This document shows positions 4,817-26,088 of a stretch of DNA of 64,000 nt, in pieces. The position numbers and the translations under genes are program-made. Position 1 is the first letter of the stretch. Each line of letters begins with the position of its first letter. The stretch spans positions 777,522 to 841,521 of the forward strand of contig CATQGW010000001.1 of NCBI GenBank assembly GCA_958295515.1, in the 5' to 3' direction. Below the pieces are notes generated by a model that ran no database searches, was not told the origin of the DNA, and saw only the letters and a program-made list of their open reading frames with translations. This DNA is from an uncultured Dehalococcoidia bacterium (lineage in GTDB: Bacteria; Chloroflexota; Dehalococcoidia; Bin125).

Positions 4817-4895
4817 GCGGCGACGTTATGCCACTTGGCGTGGCGCGATCCGCTGGCGATCCGCTAGCCTTGCGCTGAGCTCAGGAACTGGGATT

Positions 4896-7800: not shown

Positions 7801-8762
7801 ACTACGACCCGCCCGCCCCAGACGGCGGCGGCGCAGATGTCCGCGATCTGCTGAAGCTGTCGGTTATCGGGTCCGATGCCAGCGGCCGTACGGTGCCGCT
7901 GACGGCGCCGTTCGGCAGAGTGATTGTCAGGGATCCCGACGGGCGGCTGGTCTGGAACGGCTCGAGCTACGCGGTGCAGAACGGGATGCGGATCGACTGG
8001 CCGCTGCGGGAGCGGGATGATGACGGGGCGCTCGTGGATGGCGACTCCAGCAAGAGCGGGGTTCAGCCGAAATATATCCGCGATGCGGACGGCAATCTGC
8101 AGGTGCAAGTTGATATTGAGGTGGATGAGGCGGCGCAGCTGACGAAGGGGGAGTACACGATCGAGCTGCGCGCCATCGGGGAGACGGCTGAGCAGACCTT
8201 CTCGGTCGGCGGCGAGCCGGCGGAGGTCGCGCTGGGCGAACCGACAGGCTCGACGGAGGACGGCGGGCGGCTGACCGTGACCGCGACGCTGACTGATGCG
8301 GACGGCAACCTGGTGGGGGAGGGGACGCCGGTGCGTTGGGAAGAGGGCAGCGTGGGGTCGCATGTGGTGTTGGTGCAGATCTCCGCTGAGGCGAGGACGA
8401 GCGGCGGCAGCGCGTCGGCGACGTATCTGGTGGTGGGGCGGGGAACGGCCTGGGTGCGGGCGAGTTCGGGGGAGGCGACGGACACGCGGGTGATGTTCAA
8501 CCTGGGCGCGCCGCCTGCGCCAGCTGCGCTGGCCAACCCCGCGGAGTCGCTCAGCAGTCATAGGCCGGGCGCGTTTGCGTCCTGGCTCGGCAGGGGGGCG
8601 ACGAGCGCTTCCGCGCTGCTGGCGGGGCTCGACGGGATTGATTCGATCTCCGTGTGGCGCAATGGCGCTTGGCTGCGCTATGAGGTGGTGGACGGCGCGG
8701 CGGCGGGCGGTGGGGTGGACTTTGAGGTGCGGCGGGGCGAGATCCTGCGTTTGGGCGGCTGA
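4896..8762 (+). CDS. giant secreted/surface repeat protein, paralog 1 (alternative start ATG 4979 immediately after G13 tract)
   Basis: From ATG 4896 the frame runs through a G13 tract (encoding RGGGGV) into MSLPVGVLRPTALLIALIGVLALVGVALRSEAVAQ signal peptide; internal ~100 aa duplicated domain (..HLTSSDPARATIEPSS.../..HLSSSPPGRMTFEPSS...); C-terminal region shared with 11032..14442 and 17972..21658. Confidence 0.7.
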   Translation: MHRRTIDMAVSSAAGRLLLRQLRGGGGVMSLPVGVLRPTALLIALIGVLALVGVALRSEAVAQTNNVTVEFTRVAVAERLVTDRYSQTGPFSQNNYGIILRPNDLTISGAARVRIRFSETVSSFTLANLTATNATLSNLQVETANRRWTFDVTPTADGAVSISIAAGAVNAAADATRGNASAQLSMTAALAAPKVVWTDFTSATTRLQRTGPYSAGTQIDLKVIFSENVTVSGVPTVGLHTPSKTPGSKTYNASYHSGSGTSVLLFRYTVPSGQSWLAGRTTINSSAISLPSSTSIADASGNAATLTLPPRVIKVERHLPAPAPGERAPAGVVGDSHDWVFTFSEPVTVTQAPGAAAPFFLVGFTLRTPISPTRTRGNAPANYLEGSGTNQLTFRYTVRAADGVATDSSFVPDSYPYIRVPDGSGVRNAAGIDVHGRVREVVNLITAREGTRFGRSLRLSFSSIHDVIVHLTSSDPARATIEPSSFTFLSSNTDADHWSTRQPFIVTLHRDDDEDDNEVTISYRFESDLTIIDGRTGTYFKFLLQEALPGVPTEVPSDTRSEGTRFTIPFALTESFEQDVIVHLSSSPPGRMTFEPSSVRFLGFNTDPDHWMIPQTVTVTLLPDSDAEDDEVRILYRYESVDPSVHETAGTLTTYTAADSANAEYDAASLPTDLRLELGLVEDSDNVVPPGVERRVAAKLIYSGGYVPLQVSADSWLRISGSVEWEDRDRRRLDLARQETQYLGDAPPCTSRTINNVETWSCDVTVDAARFVVAPGTPDGAFTISGNIVVNGRDYPVELDVTVGTVAEVASAELGFATDIAPGDSTDTPTNNNIADDRPYPDAIAVGESTTLQLAVLNERGTASHTGEISSLVFTTTGGTLSLANPVGDCVGGGGSSCQVPVNLLTTDNADDIRVTLTHPGLEQLGAGVVRALVVSKDGDTVNADPLTVTFLGPAESIAIAEPATAVLNYDPPAPDGGGADVRDLLKLSVIGSDASGRTVPLTAPFGRVIVRDPDGRLVWNGSSYAVQNGMRIDWPLRERDDDGALVDGDSSKSGVQPKYIRDADGNLQVQVDIEVDEAAQLTKGEYTIELRAIGETAEQTFSVGGEPAEVALGEPTGSTEDGGRLTVTATLTDADGNLVGEGTPVRWEEGSVGSHVVLVQISAEARTSGGSASATYLVVGRGTAWVRASSGEATDTRVMFNLGAPPAPAALANPAESLSSHRPGAFASWLGRGATSASALLAGLDGIDSISVWRNGAWLRYEVVDGAAAGGGVDFEVRRGEILRLGG
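4963..4975 (+). repeat. G13 homopolymeric tract at translation start of giant protein paralog 1
   Basis: 13 consecutive G counted directly (gcaattgc-G13-tgtaATG). Confidence 0.9.
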
Positions 8763-8869: not shown

Positions 8870-10600
8870 ATGGCGAAGTTCGATGTCCTGATTCGCGGCG
8901 GCACGGTGGTGGATGGCACGCGCGTGCCGAGGTTCCAGGCCGATGTCGGGATTAAGGATGGGCGGATCGCGCAGATTGGCGGGCGGATGGATCCGGCCGA
9001 CGCGGACCAGCTGCTCGAGGCCGAGGGGCTGATCGTCGCGCCCGGCTTCGTGGACCTGCACACGCACTACGACGCGCAGATTCAGTGGGATCCCTACTGC
9101 ACGATCTCGGGCTGGCACGGCGTGACCTCGGTGGTGCTGGGCAACTGCGGCTTCGGCTTCGCGCCGGTGCGCGAGGAGGAGCGGGACCGCGCGATGCTGA
9201 CGATGTCGCGCACGGAGGCGATTCCGTTCGACTCGATGAAGGCGGGGATGCTCTGGGACTGGGTTTCCTTCCCGGAGTGGCTGGACACGCTGGACCGCAT
9301 CCCCAAGGGGGTGAACTGCCTGTCGTACATGCCGATTGCGCCGCTGATGATCTGGGTGATGGGCCTGGAGGCGGCGAAGAATCGGCGGGCGACGGAGGAG
9401 GAAATCCGCGAGATGCAGCGGCTGCTGCACGAGGCGATGGATGCCGGGGCGTGCGGCTGGTCGACGCAGCGGCTGGGCGAGAACTCGGTGCAGGCGGACT
9501 ACGACGGCACGCCGATGGTGACCGACATCATGAGCGACAACGAATGCCTGGCGCTGGCCGAGGTGCTGCGGGATCGGGATGAAGGGTTCATCCAAATCAC
9601 ACAGGCGACGGGCGACATCAAGAGCGATCTGGCGTTCGAGGCGGAGCTGGCGCGCGTGTCGGGCCGCCCGATTCTGCACAACGTGATCGCGCCCAACGCG
9701 CAGCGCCCGGAGTCGCACACCAAGTCGCTCAAGTGGCTGGCCGACTGCAACGCGCGGGGCGAGCGGATTTTCGGCCAGGCCTTCACGATTCGCTCGGCCT
9801 TCGCCTACACGCTTGAGGACTGGAACCTCTACGACTCGTCGCCGGCCTGGAACTACGCGACCACCGGCAGCGTGGAGGAGAAGCAGGCGAAGTTCGCCGA
9901 TCCCGAGGTGCGCGAGCGGCTCAAGGCGGAGATGGACGACGCGATTGAGAAGCTCGGCCAGACGCAGGCGATCGGCGGCTCGATTGAGAAGGTGATGGTC
10001 CAGCATCTCGAGGCCAAGCCGGAGCTTGAGCAGTACGTCGGCCTGACGCTCGCCGAGGTCGGGGAGCGGATGGGCAAGCACCCGATCGACGCGATGCTGG
10101 ACCTGGCGCTGGCGACCGACCTCAAGGCGGAGTTCCTGACCGAGGTGACGAACGCCAACGAGGATCACATGGCGGAAATCGTCGAGTCGCCCTTCACCAT
10201 CCCGGGCGTCTCCGACGGCGGCGCGCACACCAAGTTCCTGACGGCGGGCTCGTACCCGACGGACTTCCTGATCTGGATGGTGCGCGACACGGGGAAGGTG
10301 ACGCTCGAAGAGGCGCACTACCGGCTCTCCTACCTGCCGGCGCGGGCGGGCGGCTTCATCGGTCGCGGCGCGCTGACGGAGGGCGCGCCGGCGGATGTGG
10401 TCGTCTACGACCTCGACGCGCTGAAGCTGGATCCGGAGTTCCAGGGCGAAATCGTGCATGATTTCCCGGCCGGGGAGTGGCGGCGGATTCAGCGCCCGCA
10501 CGGTTACCGCTGGATTCTGGTCAACGGCGAGGTGACGATGCAGGACGGGGAGGAGACGGGCGCGACGCCGGGCAAGTTGCTCCGCCACGGCCGCGCGTAG
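8870..10600 (+). CDS. D-aminoacylase / N-acyl-D-amino-acid deacylase family amidohydrolase, copy 1
   Basis: MAKFDVLIRGGTVVDGTRVP...GRIAQIGG...LIVAPGFVDLHTHYDAQ metal-dependent amidohydrolase signature; AAGGAG SD 8 nt upstream; 576 aa. Confidence 0.8.
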   Translation: MAKFDVLIRGGTVVDGTRVPRFQADVGIKDGRIAQIGGRMDPADADQLLEAEGLIVAPGFVDLHTHYDAQIQWDPYCTISGWHGVTSVVLGNCGFGFAPVREEERDRAMLTMSRTEAIPFDSMKAGMLWDWVSFPEWLDTLDRIPKGVNCLSYMPIAPLMIWVMGLEAAKNRRATEEEIREMQRLLHEAMDAGACGWSTQRLGENSVQADYDGTPMVTDIMSDNECLALAEVLRDRDEGFIQITQATGDIKSDLAFEAELARVSGRPILHNVIAPNAQRPESHTKSLKWLADCNARGERIFGQAFTIRSAFAYTLEDWNLYDSSPAWNYATTGSVEEKQAKFADPEVRERLKAEMDDAIEKLGQTQAIGGSIEKVMVQHLEAKPELEQYVGLTLAEVGERMGKHPIDAMLDLALATDLKAEFLTEVTNANEDHMAEIVESPFTIPGVSDGGAHTKFLTAGSYPTDFLIWMVRDTGKVTLEEAHYRLSYLPARAGGFIGRGALTEGAPADVVVYDLDALKLDPEFQGEIVHDFPAGEWRRIQRPHGYRWILVNGEVTMQDGEETGATPGKLLRHGRA

Positions 10601-11031: not shown

Positions 11032-14000
11032 GTGCGGAGCGGGTTGGGAAGATGCGGATCCATCCAAATGCTTCACAATGTCGTGCGTTTGTGGCCGCGC
11101 TTGCTGGGGCTGGTGGTGTTGGCGGGACTGCTGGGCGTGGCGGTGGTGACCATTTCGCTTGCTCGGGCTGCGCCGCCTGGGGACCTTGCGCTGACGTTGA
11201 GCCTGGTTGAGGACTCCGACAACATTGTGCCGCCGGGCTCGACGCTGCGGGTTGCGGCGACGCTGACGTATAGCAGCGATTACCACGTGTTTTTGGATGT
11301 CCCGCCCAGCGCGCTGCGCATCGCCGGGGATCTGGAGTGGGATTCGTTGGGGCGTCGCGCGCACCCCTTGACGCGCCAGGGGCACCTGGGCGGACGAGTG
11401 GGATGGGAAGACATCGCAGTGCAGGCGGATCCTGCGGGCGACATCGCTGTGTTCGGGATGTCTTGGGACTCCGGTATATGCTGCGTGGGATCCGCGGATA
11501 TCTACGTGGGTGGCGCGTTTGCGGCGCATTTTTCAGGCGCAGGACCACGGGCCAACCTATTTGGCCACAGCGTTGATGTCGGCGGAGGTGTGATTGTCAT
11601 CGGCGCGCCTGACGGAGAAAACGGCGCAGCGTATGTGTTTGAGCGCAACGCGGCCGGCGTCTGGACCGAGGTTGCCGAACTCACGCCTGGTTCCAACCCT
11701 GCGTACACGGATCCTGCAACTCAGGATAAGCCGCGGTGGTTCGGCCTCGGCGTCGCGATCAGCGACGACGGGAGCACGATCGTTATCAGCAAAGTCCCTT
11801 CACCGGGCTTGGGCGTGGCGCACAATTGGGGCGCGACCGGGCATGTGTTCACCAGGCCCGCCGGCGGTTGGCGCGATATGGACACCAATCACCCGAGTGT
11901 GACTGCGCTGCGATACCACGACGTCGGCGACGGCAACACCGACCCCGACGACATGTTCAGCATCGCGTCACGCAATGACGCATACGGCGATGCGGACATC
12001 GCCGGCAACGGTTCGGTGGTCGCGCTGGGCGGATATCCCCTGCCGCGCACTGCGGATGCGGCCGACCAGCAGGGCGCGGTGCTGATCTTCCGTCGTCCGG
12101 CGGGCGGTTGGGCCGACGCCGGCGGAGCCGATGGCATGCTGGAGCAGGATGCGGTGCTGACGGCGACGGATGACGACAGCAACAACATTCGGCTCGGTCG
12201 GGCGATTGCGATCAATGTTGATGGCAGCGTGGTGCTGGCAGGCGCCCGCGGCACGGTCGGGACGTCACTTGGATCCCTCAGCTGGCCGGGCTCGGCGTTT
12301 GTCTGGGTGCAGCCCGCGACTGGCTGGGCCGATACGAACGATGCAACGGCGACGTTGAGCGATTCGACCGCGAACAACGAAGATCAGTTTGCTGACCACG
12401 TTGCCATCAGCGACTCGGGCGATCGGATCATCGTGTCCGACAGCGGCAGCCGTGCGGCGCATGTGTTCGATAAGCCTGCGCTCGGTTGGCAGGACGACGC
12501 GTCGGCCGACTTGCTGCTTACCTCGCCGAAACCGACCTCGTTGGATCCGGAAGTTGGGACGTTGGGGGTGGGCTTCGGTGGCCACACGGCGTTGGATGGA
12601 GAGTCGACGGCGATCGTTGGGCAGCTGGTGTGGCAGCTGTCAGTCCTCCGCAGTCACGCTGGCGGCTTCGCGTTCGATCTCGCCGCTGCCGACCCGCAGG
12701 CGGGCGCTGAGCGTCTGTTCCCCTGCACATCCAGGAGCGCTGATGGTCTGACTACTTGGACCTGTTCCGTCTACGTCGGCGATACTTCGATCACGATTCC
12801 GCTGGGGACGCCTGACGGGACGTTTACGATTTCTGGCGTGCTTACTGTGGACGGCGTGGAGTACAGCGATGCGCTGGAAGTTACGATCGACGAGGTCAAT
12901 GAAGTGACTGAGGTGCAGTTCAACTTTGCTGAGTATGAGAGCGGGCTGAAGCAGGGCGAGCGGTATCCGGGCGCGATTGCGGCTGGGGAGACTACGCGGC
13001 TGCGGTTGGGTGTGCTGAATGAGCATGGGAAAGCCTCTGCCGGGGGTAGCATTGCTTCGGTGCTGTTTACGACCACCGCGGGCTCGCTGAGCACGAGCAT
13101 CGGCGGCGGCTGCATGGGCGGTGGGGGGTTGGTTTGCCAGATTCCGGTGTCGGCGCTGACGGCGGCGAACGCCGACAAGATCGACCTGACCGTTGCGCAC
13201 CCCGGGCAGGGGAGCTCCGGCGTCGCCGAAATCCGCGCCACCGTACTGGCTGTCGACGGGGAGACCTTTAACGCCGATCCCTTACGAGTGACGTTGACCG
13301 GCGAGGCTGCGTTGCTGGCGATCAGCGAACCGGCGACCAGCGTGTTGAATGTGCATACTGAGGACTTCGGCGCGGAGCGGGATGACCGCGACATGCTGAC
13401 GCTGACGGTCAGGGCGACGGACGAAGAGGGGCGGAAGGCGGCTGTGCCGACGCATTCGCGGCGCGTGGTGATCACGGGTCCCGACGGTCGCCGGGTTGAT
13501 GTGGGAGACATCCCATCCTCACCCGCGTCGGAACACGCGGTGATCGCGGTCTGGCCCAAGGTGCGGGTGACGTTTGCGCCGCACCTCGGCGCTTCGAGAA
13601 CCGCTGCGGAGCTGCTGGGCAACTATGACGTCGTCAACAAGTGGTCCCTCGGCGGCAGCTGGCAGTGGTACAGCGTTGACGCGAACGGCGATCCTGCGCG
13701 CGGGGCGACCAACTTCGTCGCCAATCAGGGCGACGTACTGCGCTTCGACGATCTCGTTCTGGACGCCGACGGCAACCTGCAGGTGGAGCTCGATGTGGAC
13801 GCCGGCCGCGCGAACCCGCTGACGCCCGGCGAGTACACGCTCGAGCTGCGCGCCGGGGCGCTGACTGCGCGACGCAGCTTCAGCGTGGTCGGGGATGCCG
13901 CCGCGCTGACGCTCAGCGAAGCGACAGGCTCGACGGAGGACGGCGGGCGGCTTTCCCTGACCGCGACGCTGACCGACGGGGACGGTAATACCGTGGCGGA

Positions 14001-14442
14001 CGGCACGCCGGTTGTCTGGGAAGAGGGCAACACGGCGGCGCAGGTGGTGCTGGTGCAGCTCTCTGTTGAGGCGAAGACGACCGATGGCCGCGCCTCGGCG
14101 ACGTATCTGGTCGTCGGGCGGGGGAGCGCCTGGGTGCGGGCGAGTTCAGGCGAGGCGGGCGATACGCGGGTGATGTTCAATCTCGGCGCGCCGCCGCCGC
14201 CGCCCGCGCCTGCCAACCCTGCGGAGTCGCTCAGCAGCCGCACGCCGGGCGCGTTCGCGGCTTGGCTCGGAGTCGGCGCGACGAGCGCGTCGGCGCTGCT
14301 GGCGGGGCTGGACGGGATCGACTCGATTGCTGTGTGGCGCGATGGGGTCTGGCTGCGCTATGAGGTGGTGGGCGGCGCAGCGGCGGGCGGCGCGGTGGAC
14401 TTTGAGGTGCGGCGCGGCGAGATCGTGCGTTTGGGCGGCTGA
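11032..14442 (+). CDS. giant secreted/surface protein, paralog 3, with FG-GAP-like repeats (probable true start at ATG 11068, MLHNVVRLWPRLLGLVVLAGLLGVAVV)
   Basis: N-terminal hydrophobic signal; FG-GAP-like motifs (NLFGHSVDVGGGVIVIGAPDGENGAAYVFE, RWFGLGVAISDDGSTIVIS, RLGRAIAINVDGSVVLAG); C-terminal ~600 aa colinear with other two paralogs ending ...VDFEVRRGEIVRLGG. Confidence 0.7.
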   Translation: MRSGLGRCGSIQMLHNVVRLWPRLLGLVVLAGLLGVAVVTISLARAAPPGDLALTLSLVEDSDNIVPPGSTLRVAATLTYSSDYHVFLDVPPSALRIAGDLEWDSLGRRAHPLTRQGHLGGRVGWEDIAVQADPAGDIAVFGMSWDSGICCVGSADIYVGGAFAAHFSGAGPRANLFGHSVDVGGGVIVIGAPDGENGAAYVFERNAAGVWTEVAELTPGSNPAYTDPATQDKPRWFGLGVAISDDGSTIVISKVPSPGLGVAHNWGATGHVFTRPAGGWRDMDTNHPSVTALRYHDVGDGNTDPDDMFSIASRNDAYGDADIAGNGSVVALGGYPLPRTADAADQQGAVLIFRRPAGGWADAGGADGMLEQDAVLTATDDDSNNIRLGRAIAINVDGSVVLAGARGTVGTSLGSLSWPGSAFVWVQPATGWADTNDATATLSDSTANNEDQFADHVAISDSGDRIIVSDSGSRAAHVFDKPALGWQDDASADLLLTSPKPTSLDPEVGTLGVGFGGHTALDGESTAIVGQLVWQLSVLRSHAGGFAFDLAAADPQAGAERLFPCTSRSADGLTTWTCSVYVGDTSITIPLGTPDGTFTISGVLTVDGVEYSDALEVTIDEVNEVTEVQFNFAEYESGLKQGERYPGAIAAGETTRLRLGVLNEHGKASAGGSIASVLFTTTAGSLSTSIGGGCMGGGGLVCQIPVSALTAANADKIDLTVAHPGQGSSGVAEIRATVLAVDGETFNADPLRVTLTGEAALLAISEPATSVLNVHTEDFGAERDDRDMLTLTVRATDEEGRKAAVPTHSRRVVITGPDGRRVDVGDIPSSPASEHAVIAVWPKVRVTFAPHLGASRTAAELLGNYDVVNKWSLGGSWQWYSVDANGDPARGATNFVANQGDVLRFDDLVLDADGNLQVELDVDAGRANPLTPGEYTLELRAGALTARRSFSVVGDAAALTLSEATGSTEDGGRLSLTATLTDGDGNTVADGTPVVWEEGNTAAQVVLVQLSVEAKTTDGRASATYLVVGRGSAWVRASSGEAGDTRVMFNLGAPPPPPAPANPAESLSSRTPGAFAAWLGVGATSASALLAGLDGIDSIAVWRDGVWLRYEVVGGAAAGGAVDFEVRRGEIVRLGG

Positions 14443-14541
14443 GCTGCTTCCCCATCGTCCTGCAAACTCGTTTTGCAATCTCTATCTTTTGCGCATTCCG
14501 GTTGGACGCCCGCGCGGCGCGGGTCGGCAAGGAGCGCTGAG

Positions 14542-16272
14542 ATGGCCAAGTTTGATGTTCTGATTCGCGGCGGCACGGTTGTGGATGGCACTCGCGTGCC
14601 GAAATTCAAGGCCGATGTCGGGATTGCGGATGGGCGGATCGCCCAGGTGGGCGGCAAGATGGATCCGGCCGATGCGGAGCAGTTGCTTGAGGCGGAGGGG
14701 CTGATCGTCGCGCCCGGCTTCGTGGACCTGCACACTCACTACGACGCGCAGATTCAGTGGGATCCGTACTGCACGATCTCCGGCTGGCATGGGGTCACGT
14801 CGGTGGTGCTGGGCAACTGCGGCTTCGGCTTCGCGCCGGTGCGCGAGGAGGAGCGCGACCGGGCGATGCTGACGATGTCGCGCACCGAAGCGATTCCCTT
14901 CGACTCGATGCAGGCGGGGATGATCTGGGACTGGGTTTCGTTCCCGGAGTGGCTGGACACGCTGGATCGCATCCCCAAGGGGGTGAACTGCCTGTCGTAC
15001 ATGCCGCTCGCGCCGCTGATGACGTGGGTGATGGGTCTGGAGGCGGCGAAGAGCCGTCGCGCCAACGACGGCGAGATTGCGGAGATGCAGCGGCTGCTCG
15101 GCGAGGCGATGGACGCAGGGGCGTGCGGCTGGTCGACGCAGCGGCTGGGCGAGAACTCGGTGCAGGCGGACTACGACGGCACGCCGATGGTGACCGACAT
15201 CATGAGCGATAACGAGTGTCTGGCGCTGGCGGAGGTGCTCGCCGAGCGCGACGAGGGCTTCATCCAGATCACGCAGTTCACCGGCGATCTCGACGCGGAC
15301 CTGGAGTTTCAGTCGCGCCTGGCGGCGGCTGCGCGGCGTCCGATTCTGCACAATCTGATCGCGGTGAGCCGCGAGAACGCCGATGTGCATCGCAACCGCA
15401 TGCGGTGGCTTGAGGAGTGCAACGCGCGGGGGGAGCCGATCTTCGGCCAGGCGGCGACGATTCGCGCGGCGTTCACCTTCACGCTCGAGGACTGGAATCT
15501 CTACGACTCGTCGCCGGCCTGGAACTACGCCACGACCGGCACGCGCGAGGAGAAGCTGGAGAAGTTCGCCGACGCCGGGGTGCGCGCCAACATCAGGGCG
15601 GAGATCGACGAGGCGATCAAGAAACTCGGTCAGACCCAGGCGCTGGGCGGGCCGATTGAGGAGCTGCTGATCCAGGATCTGGCGCACAAGCCCGAGTTGG
15701 AGGAATACGTGGGGATGACCGTGGGGCAGGTCGCCGAAGCGCGCGGCGTTCACGCCGTCGATGCGATGCTCGATCTGGCGCTCGAGACCGACCTTGCGGC
15801 CGAGTTCCTGACGCCGATGCGCGAGCAGAACGACGAGTGGACGGCGGAGATGATGTCCTCGCCCTATGTGGTGCCGGGCGTCTCCGACGGGGGCGCGCAC
15901 ACGAAGTTCCTGACGGCCGGCTCCTACCCGACCGATTTCCTGATCTGGCTGGTGCGGGATACGCAGCGGCTGACGCTGGAGGAGGCGCACTACCGGCTCT
16001 CCTACCTGCCGGCCCGTGCGGCGGGTTTCCGGGACCGCGGCGCGATTATCGAGGGCGCGCCGGCCGATGTGGTCGTCTACGACCTCGACGGGCTGAAGAT
16101 CACGCCGGAGTGGACGGGCGAGGTTGTCCACGACTTCCCGGCGGGGGAGTGGCGGCGGGTGCAGCGTCCGGACGGCTATCGCTGGATTCTGGTCAATGGG
16201 GAGGTGACGTTCGAGGACGGCAAGGAGACGGGCGCGACGCCGGGCAAGCTGCTCCGCCACGGCCGCGGCTAG
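14542..16272 (+). CDS. D-aminoacylase family amidohydrolase, copy 2
   Basis: MAKFDVLIRGGTVVDGTRVPKFKADVGIADGRIAQVGG... about 85% identical to 8870..10600; AAGGAG SD. Confidence 0.8.
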   Translation: MAKFDVLIRGGTVVDGTRVPKFKADVGIADGRIAQVGGKMDPADAEQLLEAEGLIVAPGFVDLHTHYDAQIQWDPYCTISGWHGVTSVVLGNCGFGFAPVREEERDRAMLTMSRTEAIPFDSMQAGMIWDWVSFPEWLDTLDRIPKGVNCLSYMPLAPLMTWVMGLEAAKSRRANDGEIAEMQRLLGEAMDAGACGWSTQRLGENSVQADYDGTPMVTDIMSDNECLALAEVLAERDEGFIQITQFTGDLDADLEFQSRLAAAARRPILHNLIAVSRENADVHRNRMRWLEECNARGEPIFGQAATIRAAFTFTLEDWNLYDSSPAWNYATTGTREEKLEKFADAGVRANIRAEIDEAIKKLGQTQALGGPIEELLIQDLAHKPELEEYVGMTVGQVAEARGVHAVDAMLDLALETDLAAEFLTPMREQNDEWTAEMMSSPYVVPGVSDGGAHTKFLTAGSYPTDFLIWLVRDTQRLTLEEAHYRLSYLPARAAGFRDRGAIIEGAPADVVVYDLDGLKITPEWTGEVVHDFPAGEWRRVQRPDGYRWILVNGEVTFEDGKETGATPGKLLRHGRG

Positions 16273-16343
16273 GGATCGCTCCACCCGCTCCGGCTCTTGC
16301 ACGAATCCCCGCCGCAAGGCGGGGGTTCGGGTACCGTACAGAA

Positions 16344-17168
16344 ATGGATCCGCCCAGCAAGAGCGCGCTCAATCGCCTCGGTAGTCGGCTGAGAAAATCT
16401 GATCCGCCCTCGGCGGAAGATCGGGAGGTTTACCGCGAGTACGCGGCCACGTTTCTTCCTCCGCTCAATGAGGCGATCGAGGCGGTCGTCGAGAACTCCG
16501 GGTCTGTGAACTTGGCCGAGCTCGGGGCGCGAATCAAGAAATTCGAGTCAGTCGTCGCCAAGCTCCGTCGTCAGCCAACGAAGTTAGCCAGCATTGAGGA
16601 CATCGGTGGATGTCGTCTGGTTGTGCTCACGCTGGGAGACATTGAAGATGTTCATCAGTCCTTGGATCGGACATTGAACATCGTGCGGTTCCGCGATTAC
16701 CGCGAGGATGCCCACGATGGCTATCGGGCAGTCCATCTGGTTGCGCAAATGACGCCAAGACACCGCATCGAGATCCAGATTCGGACCGAACTTCAGAACG
16801 AGTGGGCCAACCTCTCCGAGCACTTGTTCCAAAGGGTTGACCCGGAGATCAAATACGGTGGCGGGCCACGAGGCGTTCGTCAGAGGCTTGATGCGCTGTC
16901 GGACGAGGGGTGGGAGCTGGATCGTCTGAGACAACGTCTGGCTGATGGGGACCTAGACTACCGCACGCTACGCCAGGCCGCGTTGTCCTCAGCGAGATTT
17001 GGCGTGGAGTGGAACGCTGAGATGATGGAGAGAGTGAGACACGTTGAGCAAGAGATGGGGCGGATCTTTGAACAGCTAAACATCTCGCTCGGCGATTTTC
17101 GCGCTAGAATAGATGCGCTGAGGCACGATGGGAGTTTGACCGATGAAGCACTTCGTCCTCCTCTATGA
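16344..17168 (+). CDS. RelA/SpoT-domain (alarmone synthetase-like) protein, small stand-alone; toxSAS-like candidate
   Basis: DIGGCRLVVLTLGD...DGYRAVHLVAQ...IEIQIRTELQNEWA matches RelA/SpoT synthetase core (D-x-G-x-R, GYxSxH, EIQIRT..W); 275 aa; 3' end overlaps next gene by 26 nt. Confidence 0.7.
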   Translation: MDPPSKSALNRLGSRLRKSDPPSAEDREVYREYAATFLPPLNEAIEAVVENSGSVNLAELGARIKKFESVVAKLRRQPTKLASIEDIGGCRLVVLTLGDIEDVHQSLDRTLNIVRFRDYREDAHDGYRAVHLVAQMTPRHRIEIQIRTELQNEWANLSEHLFQRVDPEIKYGGGPRGVRQRLDALSDEGWELDRLRQRLADGDLDYRTLRQAALSSARFGVEWNAEMMERVRHVEQEMGRIFEQLNISLGDFRARIDALRHDGSLTDEALRPPL

Positions 17169-17609: not shown

Positions 17610-17861
17610 ATGAAGTGGATTTTGCTGCACTGCGACCACGACACCGACGAGGTGACGCTGACTGAGTTTGACCGCGAAGACTCCGACGCGGCGATCGCCG
17701 CGCTCAACGCGGCTGAGCGGGGCAAGCGGCCGCAGGACGAAGTTGTGCTCTTCTTCTCCGAAGGTGAAGAGTCGCTCCGCCGCACCCACTCCCGCTATTT
17801 CTACGATGAGCGCGAAATTGCCGAGCAGCTCCGCAAGACGCTCGCCGCTATCCGCCGCTAG
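17610..17861 (+). CDS. small acidic protein (83 aa), paralog of 17143..17451
   Basis: MKWILLHCDHDTDEVTLTEFDRED...EVVLFFSEGEESLRRTHSRYFYDE; same motif set as upstream paralog. Confidence 0.5.
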   Translation: MKWILLHCDHDTDEVTLTEFDREDSDAAIAALNAAERGKRPQDEVVLFFSEGEESLRRTHSRYFYDEREIAEQLRKTLAAIRR

Positions 17862-17956
17862 CCTTACGCTGGGCTCGGGAATTGGGACTATGCGTAGGGG
17901 CACGATGGACATGGCTGTGAGTAGGGCTGCCGGGCGGTTGCTGCTGCGGCAATTGC

Positions 17957-17969
17957 GGGGGGGGGGGGG
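17957..17969 (+). repeat. G13 homopolymeric tract at translation start of giant protein paralog 2
   Basis: 13 consecutive G (gcaattgc-G13-taATG); upstream conserved leader ORF from ATG 17890 is out of frame with the main ORF at this tract length. Confidence 0.9.
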
Positions 17970-17971
17970 TA

Positions 17972-20900
17972 ATGCGCCTCTGGCGGCGCGTGTTTCGGCC
18001 GACTGCGCTGCTGATTGCGTTGATCGGCGTGCTCGCGCTCGGCGGCGTGGCGCTGCGCTCGGAGGTTGCCGCGCAGACCAACGACGTGACCGTGGAGTTC
18101 ACCCGCGTCGCCCACATGAAGCGAAACCAGATCCATGGCTTCCTCCAAGGCACCACCACGCGTCCGAACGACCTGGCCATCAGCGGGGCAGTCCGAGTGC
18201 ACATCAGGTTCAGCGAGGAGGTCAGCGGCTTCACGCTGGCGAGCCTGACGGCGAGCAACGCGACGCTCTCGAACTTGCACATGCGGCAGACCAACTGGCG
18301 TTGGACGTTCAGCGTGACGCCGACGGCGGACGGCGCGGTCAGCATCAGCATCGCGGCGGGCGCGGTGCAGGCCGCCGCCGACGCGACGCGCGGGAATGCG
18401 TCGGGGCAATTGAGCATGACCGCCGCGCTCGGCGCGCCCAAAGTGATCTGGGCCGACCTCACCACCTCGGGGTCAACCTGGCAACGCCATAGGCAGCGGT
18501 ACAGCGCCGGCACCCGGATTGACCTGACGGTGATCTTCAGCGAGTACGTGACGGTCAGCGGCGTCCCGACGGTCGGTCTGCACACGACCAGCAAGCCGGC
18601 GCCCAAGGCGTACGATGTGCCGTTTGCCGCAAGCGACGGGTCGGTGCTGCTCTTCAGCTACACCGTGCCGGCCGGGCAGAACTGGTCCCGCGGCTGGACC
18701 ACGATCACTTCGTCGGCGATCAGCCTGCCGTCGAGCGCCTCGATCACCGACGCGGATGGCAACGCGGCGACGCTGACCCTGCCGCCGCGGGTGATCGAGG
18801 CCGAGCGGCTCTTGGCCATGCCCGCGCCCGGCGAACGCGGGCCGCAAGGCGTGGTCGGCGACTCCCACGACTGGACGATCACCTTTAGCGAGCCGGTCAC
18901 GGTGACTCAGGCGCCCGGCGCCGAAGCGCCGTGGATCGCGATCAGAGCCACCCTCCAGGACGGCAACTCGGGAACGGTGCGCGCGAACTACCTGGAAGGC
19001 AGCGGCACGGATACGCTCACCTTCCGTTACACGGTGCGCGCCGCCGACAACGTCGCTACCGATGCCAGCTATGGCTTCGACAGCGCACGGTATGTCCGCG
19101 TCCCCGACGGCGCAGGCGTCCGCAACGCGGCGGGGCTTGATGTCAGCGGGCGATTTGCCACTGCCGCCAACGTCGCCATCCAGCGCGAAGGGACGCAGTC
19201 CGTGCGCGGAGCCAGACTCTCGTTCTCGTCGGTCCACGACGTCACCTTCCACCTGACCAGCAGCGATCCGGACCGGCTGACGATCGAACCCAGTTCGCTC
19301 ACGTTCTTGAGCAGAAACACCGACGCCGACCACTGGAGGACCTGGCAGGCCGTCACCTACACGGCGCACAGTGACGATGATGAGGAAACCAACGAAGTCA
19401 CGGTCTCCTACCGCTTCGAGAGCGATTACACGGCCATCGACGGCCTCACCGGCAGGTACCTCCTGTTTCGCATCCAGGAAGCCGCAGTCGGGGCGCCGAC
19501 GGAGGTCCCGAGCGGCACCCGGTCCGAAGGGACGCGGTTCACGATTCCATTCGCGCTGACGGAGCCGTTGGAGCAGGATGTGATCGTCCACCTGAGCAGC
19601 AGCGATCCGGCGCGGATGACGTTCGAGCCCAGCGCGGTCAGGTTCCTGGGTACCAACACCGACCCCGACCACTGGATGATCCCGCAGACCGTGACCGTTA
19701 CGCTGCTCCCCGACAGCGATGGCGAAGACGACGAAGTCATGGTTCTCTACCGCTACGAGAGCGTTGACCCGCCCGTTCACGGCACCGAGGGAACGCTCGC
19801 GACATACACCGCCGCGGACAGCGCCAACGCGGACTACGACGCGGCGAGTCTCCCGGCGGACCTGCGGCTGGAGCTGGGGCTGGTCGAGGATTCCGACCAG
19901 ATTGTTCCGCCCGGGGGCGAGCGGAAGGTTGCGGTGAAGCTGATCTACAGCGGCGGCTACGTACCGCTGCAGGTCTCGGCGGACAGCTGGCTACGGATCA
20001 GCGGCAGCGTGGAGTGGGAGGACCGAGATCGGCGGCGGCTCGGTCTCGCGCGGCAGGAGACTCAGTACCTGGGCAGCGCGCCGCCCTGCCAGAGCAGCAC
20101 GATCGACACAGTCGAGACCTGGAGCTGCGATGTGCTGATCGACGCCGCGCGCTTCGTGGTGCCGCCGGGCACGCCCGACGGAGCATTCACGATCTCCGGC
20201 AACATAGTCGTCAATGGTCGCGACTACCCCGGCGAGCTGGAGGTGACGGTGGGCACGGTCGATGAGGTCGCCTCGGCCGAGCTGGACTTTGCGACCGATA
20301 CCGCTGATGATCGTCCGTATCCCGACGCGATTGCGGTTGGTGAGAGCACGACGCTGCAGTTGGCGGTGCTGAACGAGCACGACAAGGCCTCGCATACCGG
20401 CGAAATCAGCTCGCTCGTGTTCACCACCACGGGCGGGGCATTGAGTCTCGCCCACCCGGTGGGCGAGTGCGTGGGCGGGGGCGGCAGCAGCTGCCAGGTG
20501 CCGGTGGATCTGCTGACGACCGACAACACGGACCAGGTGCGGGTGACGCTCACGCATCCCGGGCTGGAGCAGCTGGGCGCGGGTATCGTGCGTGCGCTCG
20601 TGGTGTCCAAAGACGGCGACACCATCAACGCCGATCCGCTCACGGTGACCTTCCTCGGCCCCGCCGAGTCGATCATGATTGGCGAACCTGCCACGGCAGT
20701 ACTTAACTACGACCCGCCGGAGCGGGACGGCGGCGGCGAAGATGTCCGCGATCTGCTGAAGCTGTCGGTCATCGGGTCCGATGACAGCGGCCGCACGGTG
20801 CCGCTGACGGCGCCGTTCGGCAGAGTGATCGTTAGAGCCCCGGATGGCATGGTTGTCTGGAGCGGCTCGAGCTATGAGGTGCAGAACGGGATGCGGATCG

Positions 20901-21658
20901 ACTGGCCGCTGCGCGAGCGGGACGATGACGGGGCGCTCGTGGACGGCGACTCCAGCAAGAGCGGGATTCAGCCGAAATATATCCGCGATGCGGACGGCAA
21001 CCTCCAGGTGCAAATCGATATTGAGGCGGACGAGGCATCGCAGCTGACGAAGGGTGACTACACGATCGAGCTGCGCGCTATCGGGGAGACGGCCGAGCAG
21101 ACCTTCTCGGTCGGCGGCGCGCCGGCGGAGATTGCGCTGAGCGAACCGGGAGGCTCAACGGAAGACGGCGGGCGGCTGACCGTGACGGCGAGATTGACCG
21201 ACAGGGACGGCAACCCGGTGGGGGACGGGACGCCGGTTCGCTGGCAAGAGGGCAGCGTGGGGTCGCATGTGGTGTTGGTGCAGATCTCTGCTGAGTCGAG
21301 GACCAGCGGCGGCAGCGCGTCGGCGACGTATCTGGTGGTTGGGCGGGGCACCGCTTGGGTGCGGGCGAGCTCAGGCGAGGCGGCGGACACGCGGGTGATG
21401 TTCAACCTCGGAGTGCCGCCGCCGCCGCCTAACCCTGCGGAGCAGCTCAGCAGCCGTCGGCCCGGCGCGTTCGCGGCCTGGCTCGGCAGGGGCGCGACGA
21501 GCGCGTCGGAGCTGTTGGCGGGGCTTGACGGGATCGACTCGATCACCGTTTGGCGCGACGGGGGCTGGCTGCGCTATGAGGTGGTGGACGGTGCAGCGGC
21601 ATCCGGTGGGGTGGACTTTGAGGTGCGGCGGGGCGAGATCGTGCGTCTGGGCGGCTGA
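17972..21658 (+). CDS. giant secreted/surface repeat protein, paralog 2
   Basis: MRLWRRVFRPTALLIALIGVLALGGVALRSEVAAQ signal peptide; colinear with paralog 1 throughout including duplicated ~100 aa domain and C-terminal ...VDFEVRRGEIVRLGG. Confidence 0.75.
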   Translation: MRLWRRVFRPTALLIALIGVLALGGVALRSEVAAQTNDVTVEFTRVAHMKRNQIHGFLQGTTTRPNDLAISGAVRVHIRFSEEVSGFTLASLTASNATLSNLHMRQTNWRWTFSVTPTADGAVSISIAAGAVQAAADATRGNASGQLSMTAALGAPKVIWADLTTSGSTWQRHRQRYSAGTRIDLTVIFSEYVTVSGVPTVGLHTTSKPAPKAYDVPFAASDGSVLLFSYTVPAGQNWSRGWTTITSSAISLPSSASITDADGNAATLTLPPRVIEAERLLAMPAPGERGPQGVVGDSHDWTITFSEPVTVTQAPGAEAPWIAIRATLQDGNSGTVRANYLEGSGTDTLTFRYTVRAADNVATDASYGFDSARYVRVPDGAGVRNAAGLDVSGRFATAANVAIQREGTQSVRGARLSFSSVHDVTFHLTSSDPDRLTIEPSSLTFLSRNTDADHWRTWQAVTYTAHSDDDEETNEVTVSYRFESDYTAIDGLTGRYLLFRIQEAAVGAPTEVPSGTRSEGTRFTIPFALTEPLEQDVIVHLSSSDPARMTFEPSAVRFLGTNTDPDHWMIPQTVTVTLLPDSDGEDDEVMVLYRYESVDPPVHGTEGTLATYTAADSANADYDAASLPADLRLELGLVEDSDQIVPPGGERKVAVKLIYSGGYVPLQVSADSWLRISGSVEWEDRDRRRLGLARQETQYLGSAPPCQSSTIDTVETWSCDVLIDAARFVVPPGTPDGAFTISGNIVVNGRDYPGELEVTVGTVDEVASAELDFATDTADDRPYPDAIAVGESTTLQLAVLNEHDKASHTGEISSLVFTTTGGALSLAHPVGECVGGGGSSCQVPVDLLTTDNTDQVRVTLTHPGLEQLGAGIVRALVVSKDGDTINADPLTVTFLGPAESIMIGEPATAVLNYDPPERDGGGEDVRDLLKLSVIGSDDSGRTVPLTAPFGRVIVRAPDGMVVWSGSSYEVQNGMRIDWPLRERDDDGALVDGDSSKSGIQPKYIRDADGNLQVQIDIEADEASQLTKGDYTIELRAIGETAEQTFSVGGAPAEIALSEPGGSTEDGGRLTVTARLTDRDGNPVGDGTPVRWQEGSVGSHVVLVQISAESRTSGGSASATYLVVGRGTAWVRASSGEAADTRVMFNLGVPPPPPNPAEQLSSRRPGAFAAWLGRGATSASELLAGLDGIDSITVWRDGGWLRYEVVDGAAASGGVDFEVRRGEIVRLGG

Positions 21659-23438: not shown

Positions 23439-24335
23439 TCAGGTGACCGCGATCACAACTCCCAGGATCGTGGCAATGGCGATCATCGCGGCGATTGTGA
23501 TGGACATCACCAGTGTGATTCGGTCGTGGACGCCGACGATTGACTTCTGTATCTCCAGCTGAGACTCCAGCACCGATGTCCGCATTTTGCCCTCGACTTC
23601 GGCCAGAGCGTTCTGCGTCTCAACCCGGGCTCCCTTGAGTTCGGCGCGCATTTCGGCGAGGTCTTTCTGGGTTTCGGTGCGCATTTCGGCGAGGTCTTTC
23701 TGGGTTTCGGCGCGTGCCTCTGCCAGCATCGCCTGCATTTCGGCGCGGTCTTTTTGGATTTCGGCGCGCATTTCGGCGAGGTCTTTCTGGGTTTCGGCGC
23801 GTGCCTCTGCCAGCATCGCCTGCATTTCGGCGCGCATTTCGGCGAAGCCTCTCTGGGTTTCGGCGCGCATTTCGGCGAGGTCTCTCTGGGTTTCGGCGCG
23901 CGCCTCTGCCAGCATCGCCTGCATTTCGGCGAAGTCTCTCTGGGTTTCGGCGCGCGCCTCTGCCAGCATCGCCTGCATTTCGGCGAGGTCTTTCTGGGTT
24001 TCGGCGCGGGTCTCTATCAGCATCGCCTGCATTTCGGCGAGGTCTTTTTGGGTTTCGACGCGGGATTCCCTGAGTTCGGCGCGCATTTCGGCGAGGTCTT
24101 TTTGCGTCTGCGCCTGGGATTCCGCGACCAGGGCGCGCATCTCCGCCACCGCCACGCTGATTCCTGATTCAATCCGCTCCAGCGCCCGGTCCTGGTCTTC
24201 CTGCCGCACGAGATCGTTCTGCGAGGCCTCGACCTGCTCGGCGAGCACATCCACCACCTCCACCGCCGCCGCTTCGTCGGCGAGGCCGCGGCGCACCAGC
24301 ACATCGCGCAGTCTCGGCCTGTCGAGGATCGCCAT
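23439..24335 (-). CDS. coiled-coil tandem-repeat protein with C-terminal transmembrane anchor
   Basis: Repeats of AETQKDLAEMQAMLAEAR over about 200 aa; C-terminal LVMSITIAAMIAIATILGVVIAVT; underlying DNA 23640..24110 is a degenerate tandem repeat. Confidence 0.6.
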   Translation of the reverse strand: MAILDRPRLRDVLVRRGLADEAAAVEVVDVLAEQVEASQNDLVRQEDQDRALERIESGISVAVAEMRALVAESQAQTQKDLAEMRAELRESRVETQKDLAEMQAMLIETRAETQKDLAEMQAMLAEARAETQRDFAEMQAMLAEARAETQRDLAEMRAETQRGFAEMRAEMQAMLAEARAETQKDLAEMRAEIQKDRAEMQAMLAEARAETQKDLAEMRTETQKDLAEMRAELKGARVETQNALAEVEGKMRTSVLESQLEIQKSIVGVHDRITLVMSITIAAMIAIATILGVVIAVT

Positions 24336-24363: not shown

Positions 24364-25947
24364 CTACCACCACTCGACATCGGCCTCGATCTGGAGCAGC
24401 GCCGCCGCGAGATCGTCGGCGGTCGCGGCGTCCCCGGCGACGAGTACCCACGCCGTGCGGAGGTGGTCGACCACGCGGATCGCTCCATGCGGGGTGTCCC
24501 AGCCGATTACCCGCTTGTCGGCTGCGCCCCAGGCTTGGCCGTTGGAGAAGGCGACCAGCCACTCGCGCAGGCCGGCGATGCCCTCGGTGTGCTCGCCGGC
24601 ATCGTCGAATGCCAGCGCCCAGAGTGTGAGCCACTCGTCTTGTCCTCCGCCGTCGCGCTGGAACGCGTACAAGCGGTCGCCGCCCCAGCCCGCCGCCGCC
24701 GCGCTCGCCTCCGCCTGCCTGCCGGTCGAAGCTGAGATCAGCAGTCGCAGATAGTACTCGCCGAGCGTGTCCTGGTACGGCGTTACGAGCGACGGCTCCT
24801 GACCGATCACCCTCCATGCTTCCCGCGGCAGCGCTCTTTCGATCAGCGTGTCGAGTACGGTCATGTCCAACGCCGACTCGCGCGACTCGTACTTGTCGAC
24901 ATGCAACAGCTGTTCCATCGTGTCCGGCGGATCGCGCAATCGGTCGTTCAGTGCATCGGGACCGCCTTCGAGCAACAGCTGTGCGACGAACTCAGCGCTG
25001 TCGCGCTCCGGCGACACAAGCCAGTCGGAAACTTCGCTCGCGAGGTCGGAGTAGCGAGGCAGCCCGTGGCCGTCGTCGCTTGTCTCTGGTTCGAGCTGAT
25101 CGATCGCGCCCTGAATCGCCGTGTGGTCCGGCTGAAGCGTCGCACGGGATGCGTCCGCTTCGCGGAGCCACCACAACGACATCCAGCGATCCATCTCTAC
25201 CCGCCAAGGCAGCCGACGCAACTCGCGCCCATCGAGCAAACCACGTTGCAGATACGACGCGACCTGGTGCGAGAGCGCTTGCGCCAGGTTGGCCGTCGAT
25301 GCCGACGCGACCAGAGTGATCGATCCTTGCATCCCGGGGTGGTACACGTGCCAACTCGACTGATCTGCGGTGCTCAATACATCCAACAGTTCGGGCGTCC
25401 AGTCCGACTCGAGCAATCCCAGCCCCACGTGCCAGAGGTGCCATACCCTCGATCGTGCGGGATCGAACTCGCCACGCCGTGGATACCAGTATCCGCACTG
25501 CGACGCGCGCATCCAATCAAGCGACATCATCTGAATCGCCGGCGTTGCGTCAAGGGGTAACCCTCGCGCCTCAGCGGTCGCATGTATCACCGCTCCGATC
25601 CAGGGATGGGTGCTCTGGTCAATGAGCGTCGGTCCGTCCAACTCCTCCCACCGCCCGCTTGCCGTCGGGGTGCCCCAACGGGCGCCGTTCTGCTCGTAGA
25701 GCCGCAACGATTCAGCGCACCATTCCACCTCGCGCTCAATCCGCCGCTGCAAGTCGGCGTTGTCGCGCGCAACCTCGGCCAGCGGACGCCAGCTGTCCCT
25801 CGGCCAACGCGGCGAGAGCGTTGTGCGCTCAACAGGCGACGGCGACGCCGACGCGGAGTTGGCCGTTGCCGCCGGCTCAACGGTGTCCTGCTGCGCAATC
25901 GCGTCGTCCGAGTCTTGGTCCGGCGGCTGCTCAGCGCCTTGACTCAC
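24364..25947 (-). pseudogene. putative lipoprotein (paralog of 26089..27582 with degenerate HExxH) separated from its signal-peptide exon by a C15 homopolymer; phase-OFF or frameshifted in this assembly
   Basis: Upstream minus-strand segment 25984..26044 encodes MRWIATTICLVLLAMIVAC (lipobox IVAC) then a C15 tract (25969..25983); a tract of 14 or 17 would put it in frame with VSQGAEQPP... body; HELVH of the paralog replaced by LAQALSHQ. Confidence 0.55.
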
Positions 25948-25968
25948 CGCCTGCGCTTGCTGTAACGC

Positions 25969-25983
25969 GGGGGGGGGGGGGGG
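25969..25983 (-). repeat. C15 (plus-strand G15) homopolymeric tract between signal peptide and mature domain of lipoprotein gene
   Basis: 15 consecutive G counted on plus strand. Confidence 0.9.
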
Positions 25984-26088
25984 CTGAGCACGCCACGATC
26001 ATGGCGAGCAACACAAGGCAGATCGTCGTCGCTATCCATCGCATGACCAGATCCTACCATCACTCTTTGAGCTGCGGTGGTTCGCCGC

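Follow-up and report, generated by a model that had tools for sequence, protein, structure and literature searches.

Homopolymer phase variation is textbook biology of host-adapted pathogens. In Neisseria, a poly-G tract in the signal-peptide-coding region of pilC1 and pilC2 turns these two paralogues ON and OFF by frameshift and independently of each other, and the contingency genes of Campylobacter jejuni and Helicobacter pylori carry intragenic G or C homopolymers of about 8–14 bases in genes for surface structures. Homopolymer switches in promoter spacers are represented by the Treponema pallidum tpr and Neisseria porA/opc types. Bacterial translation is also controlled by upstream open reading frames (ORFs) and by coupling or re-initiation at overlapping stop and start codons (TAATG or ATGA); to our knowledge, no case has been described in which a hypermutable tract selects among coupling relations. 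In T. pallidum tprE/G/J, tprL and tp0126, the poly-G lies within the promoter and acts on transcription (PMC7864442); for Campylobacter autotransporters, see PMC7168839. A literature search returned no description of phase variation in Chloroflexota or Dehalococcoidia. Here we analyse a run of 13 G residues (G13) that precedes a large surface-protein gene, copy 2 of a paralogous pair, in a 64,000-nucleotide stretch of DNA (the window) from an uncultured Dehalococcoidia bacterium (contig CATQGW010000001.1, positions 777,522 to 841,521). A preliminary description of this DNA had proposed that the two paralogues share one switch and sit in opposite phase states.

The locus resembles Neisseria pilC in that the poly-G is found at the extreme 5′ coding end of a gene for a large surface protein, in its signal-peptide region, that tract lengths are set independently among the paralogues of one genome, and that the frame would decide production. 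Three distantly related loci (L001, L004 and L011, described below) fit the pilC type directly. Unlike in pilC, however, the tract precedes the hydrophobic core and follows a leader of 25–40 codons, the window's lineage has a TAATG start after the tract, so that an out-of-frame leader need not mean OFF, and the host is an uncultured member of the Dehalococcoidia (Chloroflexota), not a host-adapted proteobacterium. With the T. pallidum tpr genes it shares a variable poly-G whose length differs between strains in a paralogous family of putative surface proteins, but the tract considered here is 2–4 nt from a start codon or inside an ORF, and no promoter geometry fits. Frameshifted and intact alleles occur side by side among strains, as they do for the poly-G/C genes of Campylobacter and Helicobacter; whereas the tracts of the latter are at various ORF positions, the position before the signal-peptide core is here family-wide, down to 38% identity. 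Finally, as in coupling and upstream-ORF systems, one leader frame ends at a TAA that overlaps the main ATG and another overlaps the main start out of frame, which is usually a repressing arrangement; unlike in known coupling systems, the relation between the leader and the main ORF would be chosen by a hypermutable tract.

The G13 tract and the reading frames of copy 2

The G13 tract of copy 2 is followed by TA and then by the main ATG (17972–17974) in the context ..caattgc-G13-taATGcgc.., whereas copy 1, with the same leader and tract, has tgtaATG; on this point the preliminary description and our direct reading of the sequence agree. Upstream of the tract, start codons are confined to the leader frame, which contains ATGs at 17890, 17905 and 17911, a GTG, and a TTG 4 nt 5′ of the tract. 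Read from ATG 17890, this frame translates as MRRGTMDMAVSRAAGRLLLRQLR, as described earlier, and enters the tract. Because 17890 and 17972 are 82 nt apart, the leader misses the frame of the main ORF by one base, again as described, and G12 would fuse both. In copy 1 the corresponding distance, from ATG 4896 to ATG 4980 (one base beyond the start at 4979 given previously), is 84 nt, so that leader and main ORF are in frame and fused (..RGGGGVM-SLP..). The leader frame of copy 2 crosses the main ATG out of frame and stays open for 520 nt past the tract, to the TAG at 18490–18492. The blocks upstream of the two main ORFs (4861–4976 and 17855–17970) are 91% identical.

Long G tracts are not a product of chance in this DNA. 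The window has 67% G+C, yet homopolymers are otherwise depleted: its G or C runs comprise thirteen of 6–7 bases, none of 8–12, and then one of 15 and two of 13. Three runs of 13 or more compare with 0.06 expected under a model of independent, identically distributed bases, and the nine-G word has 17 matches compared with 0.79 expected from dinucleotide shuffles. The G13 of copy 2 is therefore what a contingency locus calls for, a long pure homopolymer beyond about 8 bases and far above background.

Tract length across related genomes

A protein search yielded about 28 colinear family members, all on large contigs of uncultured bacteria, and eleven loci were retrieved for comparison; a scan of a genome collection returned three loci only, and metagenome scans with one protein pattern and one 27-nt DNA pattern gave no matches. 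The window's clade is represented by 15 leader–tract–signal peptide copies in seven genomes. These copies are related by descent and gene conversion, and counts made on them are non-independent. The length of a tract in each assembly is a population consensus, and the related contigs, which carry hifiasm-style names (ptg...c/l), are assumed to come from long-read metagenome assemblies, in which the count of a 13-base homopolymer may err by one.

The 15 tracts read 6, 6, 6, 6, G4AG6, 12, 12, 13, 13, 13, 14, 14, 15, 17 and 17, a pure run of 12–17 G being kept in ten of them, while their flanks align almost base for base despite these differences. The comparison of homologous loci that the preliminary description had proposed is most direct for the orthologues of copy 2, identified as the last Big_12 gene before a carboxyltransferase gene, whose tracts are G12, G13, G14, G17 and G17 (n = 5, window included) between nearly unchanged flanks. 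Length thus varies at an orthologous site with the same surroundings (range 6–17 over all copies), and the tract is hypervariable on a time scale over which its flanks hardly change.

Paralogues within one genome also differ in tract length and frame state. To this extent the earlier proposal of switching paralogous surface genes holds; its reading of the two copies as being in opposite states, one ON and the other OFF, finds no support in that form for copy 2, as discussed below.

Three frame states in the window's lineage

Of the 15 window-clade copies, 13 have an ATG after the tract, 2 or 4 nt away and always within TAATG. Depending on tract length and spacer, the leader reads into this element in one of three ways. 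The fused state has ..GGG GTA ATG.., the state in which the leader stop overlaps the main start has ..GGG TAA TG.., and the run-through state has ..GGT AAT GCG.. and stays open for 136–520 nt. Six copies are fused: four that are locked at G6, the window's copy 1, and a copy 2 orthologue with G12 (L009, gene at 16820), which reads ..RQLRGGGVMRLG.. and bears out the expectation that G12 gives the fused form. Among the five stop-overlap copies are the one with the interrupted G4AG6 tract and three orthologues of copy 2 (G14, G17 and G17), and the four run-through copies include copy 2 of the window and a gene of L008 (at 10001), the only in-frame start of which is the TTG 4 nt before the tract. 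Intact and frameshifted alleles are therefore both present in nature, as at known contingency loci.

Nine long-tract copies with a post-tract ATG divide into two fused, four stop-overlap and three run-through, and the five stabilised copies, with a shortened or interrupted tract, into four fused, one stop-overlap and no run-through. Every copy with a start downstream of the tract, the distant L002 and L003 among them, has a TAA after the tract; L001, L004 and L011, in which no such start exists, also have no TAA there. Furthermore, fusion to an upstream start is seen in all five loci that lack a post-tract ATG (L001, L004, L011 and the L008 genes at 323 and 10001), compared with 6 of 15 loci that possess a post-tract start (Fisher p = 0.03). 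We read this difference as indicating that the leader would be a real translation start where one is needed, and that the post-tract ATG, wherever it is present, relieves the constraint on frame.

The tract in distant Dehalococcoidia homologues

Homologues with 38–42% protein identity (L001, L003, L004; L002; L011) in metagenome-assembled genomes (MAGs) of Dehalococcoidia have a pure G13–G14 tract that directly precedes the hydrophobic core of the signal peptide. Between tract and core, L001, L004 and L011 contain no ATG, GTG or TTG. Leader starts preceded by a strong Shine-Dalgarno sequence are situated about 110 nt upstream of the tract: in L001, L003 and L004 the start is GTAGGAGCTCCGC-GTG (AGGAG-N6-GTG), behind an extended −10-like TGGTAGAAT with the tract about 165 nt downstream of the latter, and in L011 it is GGAGAGGGAG-N6-GTG. 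Comparable Shine-Dalgarno sites precede 29 of 52 neighbouring genes. The leader start of L001, L004 and L011 is in frame through the tract. Given this strong in-frame leader start and the lack of any later one, the tract of these loci should lie within the coding sequence and encode Gly4–5, and, being intragenic, should abolish the protein upon a change of one G. The tract would likewise be within the translated ORF of the L008 gene at 10001, which has no other start. By inference, the arrangement in the distant clades would be a classical frameshift ON/OFF switch. The frame-dependent switching envisaged in the preliminary description is thus supported in relatives without a post-tract start, where the leader reads through in frame, but not in copy 2 itself.

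Gene calls from the distant clades are consistent with this arrangement. Most called proteins read GGGG in frame (about 11 of 14, compared with one third expected; p about 7e-4, uncorrected for relatedness). Three others (P0113, P0022 and P0200) have their called start only downstream of the signal peptide, beside full-length relatives, as expected of frameshifted OFF variants; the truncated P0022 and the full-length, fused P0112 are encoded on the same 3.40-Mb contig. A search of 1.84 billion representatives returned mostly unrelated giant Big_12 repeat proteins and one added subfamily with the leader–GGGG–signal peptide layout, whose representative P0188 reads ..LADSGGGGILCPSARRALLAL...

Short G-rich repeats (gcaggaatgacggaggggg..), tandem or dispersed, occur in intergenic DNA upstream of distant-clade genes (L003 5600–5700; L004 1950–2000 and 7200–7290). 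They contain the sole other G8–G9 runs in the fetched loci.

Initiation signals and RNA structure

Pairing with the anti-Shine-Dalgarno sequence was predicted with a canonical 16S tail, which was assumed and not taken from this genome. The G run gave −14.3 kcal/mol, G6 gave −10.8 kcal/mol and the consensus AAGGAGGU gave −11.6 kcal/mol, and the tract is thus predicted to be a strong mimic of a Shine-Dalgarno site located 2–4 nt from the post-tract ATG.

Folding predictions differ between the two types of leader. Upon single-strand folding of copy-1-type leaders, the G run pairs with a CCCUCCC downstream of the AUG (z about −2.4, with values from −2.2 to −2.6), whereas copy-2-type leaders show no structure (z +0.4 to +0.8), and an Rfam search around the leader gave no match. 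We rejected a conserved RNA structure as an explanation of the tract, since it is seen in the first type and absent from the second. The post-ATG codons that can pair with the G run are CCC CTC CCT or TCC CTC CCT (window 4976–5000, L009 9997–10020); the pairing places the AUG in a hairpin loop and has no counterpart in copy-2-type leaders.

A model of the proposed switch and its alternatives

We propose the following explanation, which, with its refinement to three states, we consider probable though well short of certain. The G13 would be a slippage-prone homopolymer, that is, a contingency locus, at the 5′ end of the genes of a secreted Big_12 family, with a short leader frame upstream of it and the hydrophobic core of the signal peptide downstream. 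Slippage during replication would alter the length of the tract and thereby the frame in which the main gene is reached by ribosomes that began at the leader. In members with no post-tract start, the gene would be ON only if the leader, the Gly4–5 tract and the signal peptide share one frame. In the window's lineage, a start codon would have been added just after the tract, within TAATG, giving rise to three states: (i) a fusion with a long precursor, as in copy 1 (G13 and TGTA) and as expected of copy 2 with G12 or G15; (ii) a leader that stops at the TAA overlapping the ATG and a main start coupled to it, as expected of copy 2 with G14 or G17; and (iii) a leader that runs out of frame over the ATG, as in copy 2 as sequenced. 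State (iii) is the likeliest to have low expression, because ribosomes translating the leader would occlude the main start, but independent initiation at ATG 17972, with the G run as a Shine-Dalgarno site, may still yield some product. Copy 2 is in the run-through state; if its leader is translated, its expression should be low, and if not, it should be ON from its own ATG.

What the compared genomes show directly is the tract itself, how its length varies from strain to strain, its conservation over deep divergences, how the frames relate to each other, and that the relatives lack alternative starts. The functional part of the explanation goes further and is inferred: ribosomes in the window's lineage would have to translate the leader, run-through would have to lower expression, and the tract would have to switch often and reversibly. 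A stronger version, in which length modulo 3 operates a three-position switch with two ON isoforms (long and short pre-sequence) and one OFF state for each paralogue, would derive from a plain frameshift switch conserved across an uncultured Dehalococcoidia clade; we put it forward tentatively and regard it as doubtful.

Several observations weigh against our explanation, and a number of them favour a leader that is an untranslated 5′ region, with the G run serving as the ribosome-binding site of ATG 17972, its length being noise and copy 2 constitutively ON. The three states are about equally frequent among ATG-bearing copies, although the counts are small and the copies kin, and the tract is shrunken or interrupted in 5 of the 15 copies. 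The predicted pairing before the leader ATG of copy 2 is weak (−5.4 kcal/mol, compared with −14.3 before the main ATG), so that the main ATG could be usable irrespective of tract length. The ATG of copy 2 follows the tract, and its leader is without a coding signature: variable columns fall on the three codon positions as 8:10:6, with no third-position bias, and the leader evolves about as fast as the untranslated upstream block. This test is of little power, given that the control region is itself weakly periodic (10:6:10). In addition, gene callers begin the protein at the post-tract ATG (P0001), a hand-picked candidate promoter, TTGCGC-16 nt-GATTAT (8 of 12 matches, below the scan threshold), would possibly put the start of transcription downstream of leader ATG 17890, transcriptional slippage on a run of 13 G could blur all three states, and long-read assemblies can miscount long homopolymers by one, so that the tract itself is more certain than the frame state of any one copy. 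A neutral 5′ region nevertheless appears unlikely to us. A pure run of 12–17 G far exceeds what a ribosome-binding site needs and would be expected to decay without selection, and the tract is kept down to 38% identity, in clades where it is inside the ORF. Its retention at this length, the TAA that accompanies every post-tract start and the lack of a stabilised copy in the run-through frame speak for a function that the tract would still have. At the opposite extreme, protein would be made only as a leader fusion and ATG 17972 would be no initiation site, with G13 OFF and G12 or G15 ON, which is how the preliminary description saw copy 2. Members without a post-tract start must work in this manner, the four G6-locked copies are all fused, one of them (the L008 gene at 323) with ATA instead of the post-tract ATG, and in a divergent locked copy (L010, gene at 13456) the leader GTG is preceded at 7 nt by a strong GGAGGG site. 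For the window's lineage, however, we find such a strict scheme quite unlikely. It would leave 7 of 9 long-tract copies and 4 of 5 copy 2 orthologues OFF, even though 13 of 15 copies retain the post-tract ATG, which is the sole start for the 4 of 9 long-tract copies in which the leader ends at the overlapping TAA, and which has the G run as a predicted strong Shine-Dalgarno mimic. With ATG-bearing copies spread evenly over the three states and the nine long tracts found in all frames, the assignment of copy 2 as OFF is unproven. Nor is there support for G12 as the only ON length. The preliminary description also missed the third state, in which a leader that terminates at the TAA of the conserved TAATG, overlapping the ATG, would allow re-initiation.

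Two further alternatives are much less plausible than the contingency switch that we favour. The tract could be a promoter spacer, placed between the −35 and −10 elements or beside them, and tune transcription by its length, as in the tpr genes of T. pallidum; poly-G promoter switches are documented in paralogous outer-membrane protein families (PMC7864442), and the TGTAAT that follows the tract of copy 1 resembles a −10 box. We consider this very improbable. A sigma-70 consensus scan found no promoter at copy 1 or copy 2, a −10 box after the tract would set the transcription start inside or past the ATG, and no promoter-like pair of hexamers surrounds the tract. We also rejected a −10 box downstream of the tract on the ground that the next in-frame start is not conserved, this GTG being absent from L008 (gene at 13921) and L009 (gene at 16820). 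In the distant clades, moreover, the tract is downstream of both the extended −10-like element and a start codon with a strong Shine-Dalgarno site, at the distances given above. Assembly or sequencing error as the source of the G runs or of their lengths is hardly conceivable: homopolymers are the main error class in long-read sequencing, but at least four samples or records (window, ERZ19489113, ERZ25070167, ERZ23495769, OZ-series MAGs) have the tract in the same place, and lengths from 12 to 17 are far beyond an error of ±1.

A separate observation concerns the candidate promoter region. The copy 2 orthologue of L005 has a 9-nt duplication (AATTGGGAT) just 5′ of the leader ATG (9900–9925), which creates GATAAT 16 nt after TTGCGC; this is compatible with a promoter overlapping the leader ATG but is no proof of one.

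If real, the three-position switch would be the first contingency-locus system to be described from the Chloroflexota. A pure G12–17 run is found at one exact position, in several independently set copies per genome, in a family that has diverged to 38% identity, and the conservation of such a tract would imply strong fluctuating selection on the cell surface, by phage, grazers or a host. The succession of leader, G run, TA and signal peptide constitutes a searchable sequence signature, and the TAATG arrangement offers a directly testable three-state model. Gene callers treat the tract loci inconsistently, with N-terminal extensions, truncations or a start at the post-tract ATG, which is a practical warning for the annotation of long-read MAGs.

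Encoded proteins and neighbouring features

The coordinates of the two copies and of a second type of homopolymer are collected in Table 1. The proteins encoded by copies 1 and 2 (1260 and 1228 amino acids) are 78% identical over their full length, and each has a typical N-terminal Sec signal peptide and one Big_12 Ig-like domain (PF19078; 49.8 bits, above the gathering threshold of 27, residues 66–141). The remainder of the protein had no match in searches of PDB sequences and NCBIfam. Judged by these features, the product of copy 2 is probably a secreted or surface protein.

Table 1 Positions of the homopolymer tracts and associated features in the window.
Feature	Position	Strand	Remarks
Copy 1 conserved leader block	4861–4962	+	Leader ATG 4896
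Copy 1 tract	4963–4975	+	G13
Copy 1 TGTAATG	4976–4982	+	Main ATG 4980–4982
Copy 1 main ORF	4980–8762	+	1260 amino acids, 78% identical to copy 2
Copy 2 conserved leader block	17855–17956	+	Begins at the stop codon of the upstream 83-amino-acid ORF
Copy 2 leader reading frame with G13	17890–18492	+	Run-through state
Copy 2 hypermutable tract	17957–17969	+	G13 homopolymer
Copy 2 TAATG	17970–17974	+	TAA stop, read in one of three leader frames, overlaps main ATG 17972
Copy 2 main ORF	17972–21658	+	1228 amino acids; Sec-type signal peptide, Big_12 Ig-like domain
Copy 2 signal peptide	about 17972–18076	+	Sec-type, MRLWRRVFRPTALLIALIGVLALGGVALRSEVAA/QT, read directly
C15 run	25969–25983	−	In gene at about 24364–26044, DUF8575/Hvo_1808-like surface lipoprotein

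The C15 run directly follows the lipobox cysteine (MRWIATTICLVLLAMIVAC), just after the signal peptide, and shifts the lipoprotein gene out of frame: with C15 a stop is reached after 37 codons, whereas C14 would restore a protein of 559 amino acids. The orthologues in L005 and L007 have GATCCTCCC or GATCCCCCC at this site and are intact. Judged from these orthologues, the C15 is putatively specific to the strain and represents a second kind of frameshift by a homopolymer in a surface-protein gene.

The surface-protein paralogues of the window are clustered and mosaic. A third paralogue (11032–14442) is without a tract and is similar to copies 1 and 2 over its C-terminal half only. Among P0008 and P0010–P0017, some have a copy-2-type N-terminus yet only 57–60% overall identity across 76–78% of their length. 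Such mosaicism suggests that recombination or gene conversion among members of the cluster may operate besides tract slippage.

Also in the window, on the minus strand at 23439–24335, is a gene for a 298-amino-acid protein with about 20 tandem repeats of 11 and 18 residues (AETQKDLAEMRAE / MQAMLAEAR; DNA repeats at 23546–24146) and a single C-terminal transmembrane helix; it had no Pfam match in the related loci. Toxin–antitoxin-like modules border the surface-protein cluster (window 15837–17168, 17610–17860 and 3695–4816; L006 8512–9916). A HigB-like gene and an HTH/Peptidase_M78 gene precede copy 1, and a small RelA/SpoT-domain gene is accompanied by an ORF of 82–83 amino acids, the end of which coincides exactly with the start of the copy 2 leader block. 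Two Amidohydro_3 genes (8870–10600 and 14473–16272), with about 80–90% DNA identity, follow copy 1 and the third, tract-less paralogue, and this gene pairing is seen in all related genomes.

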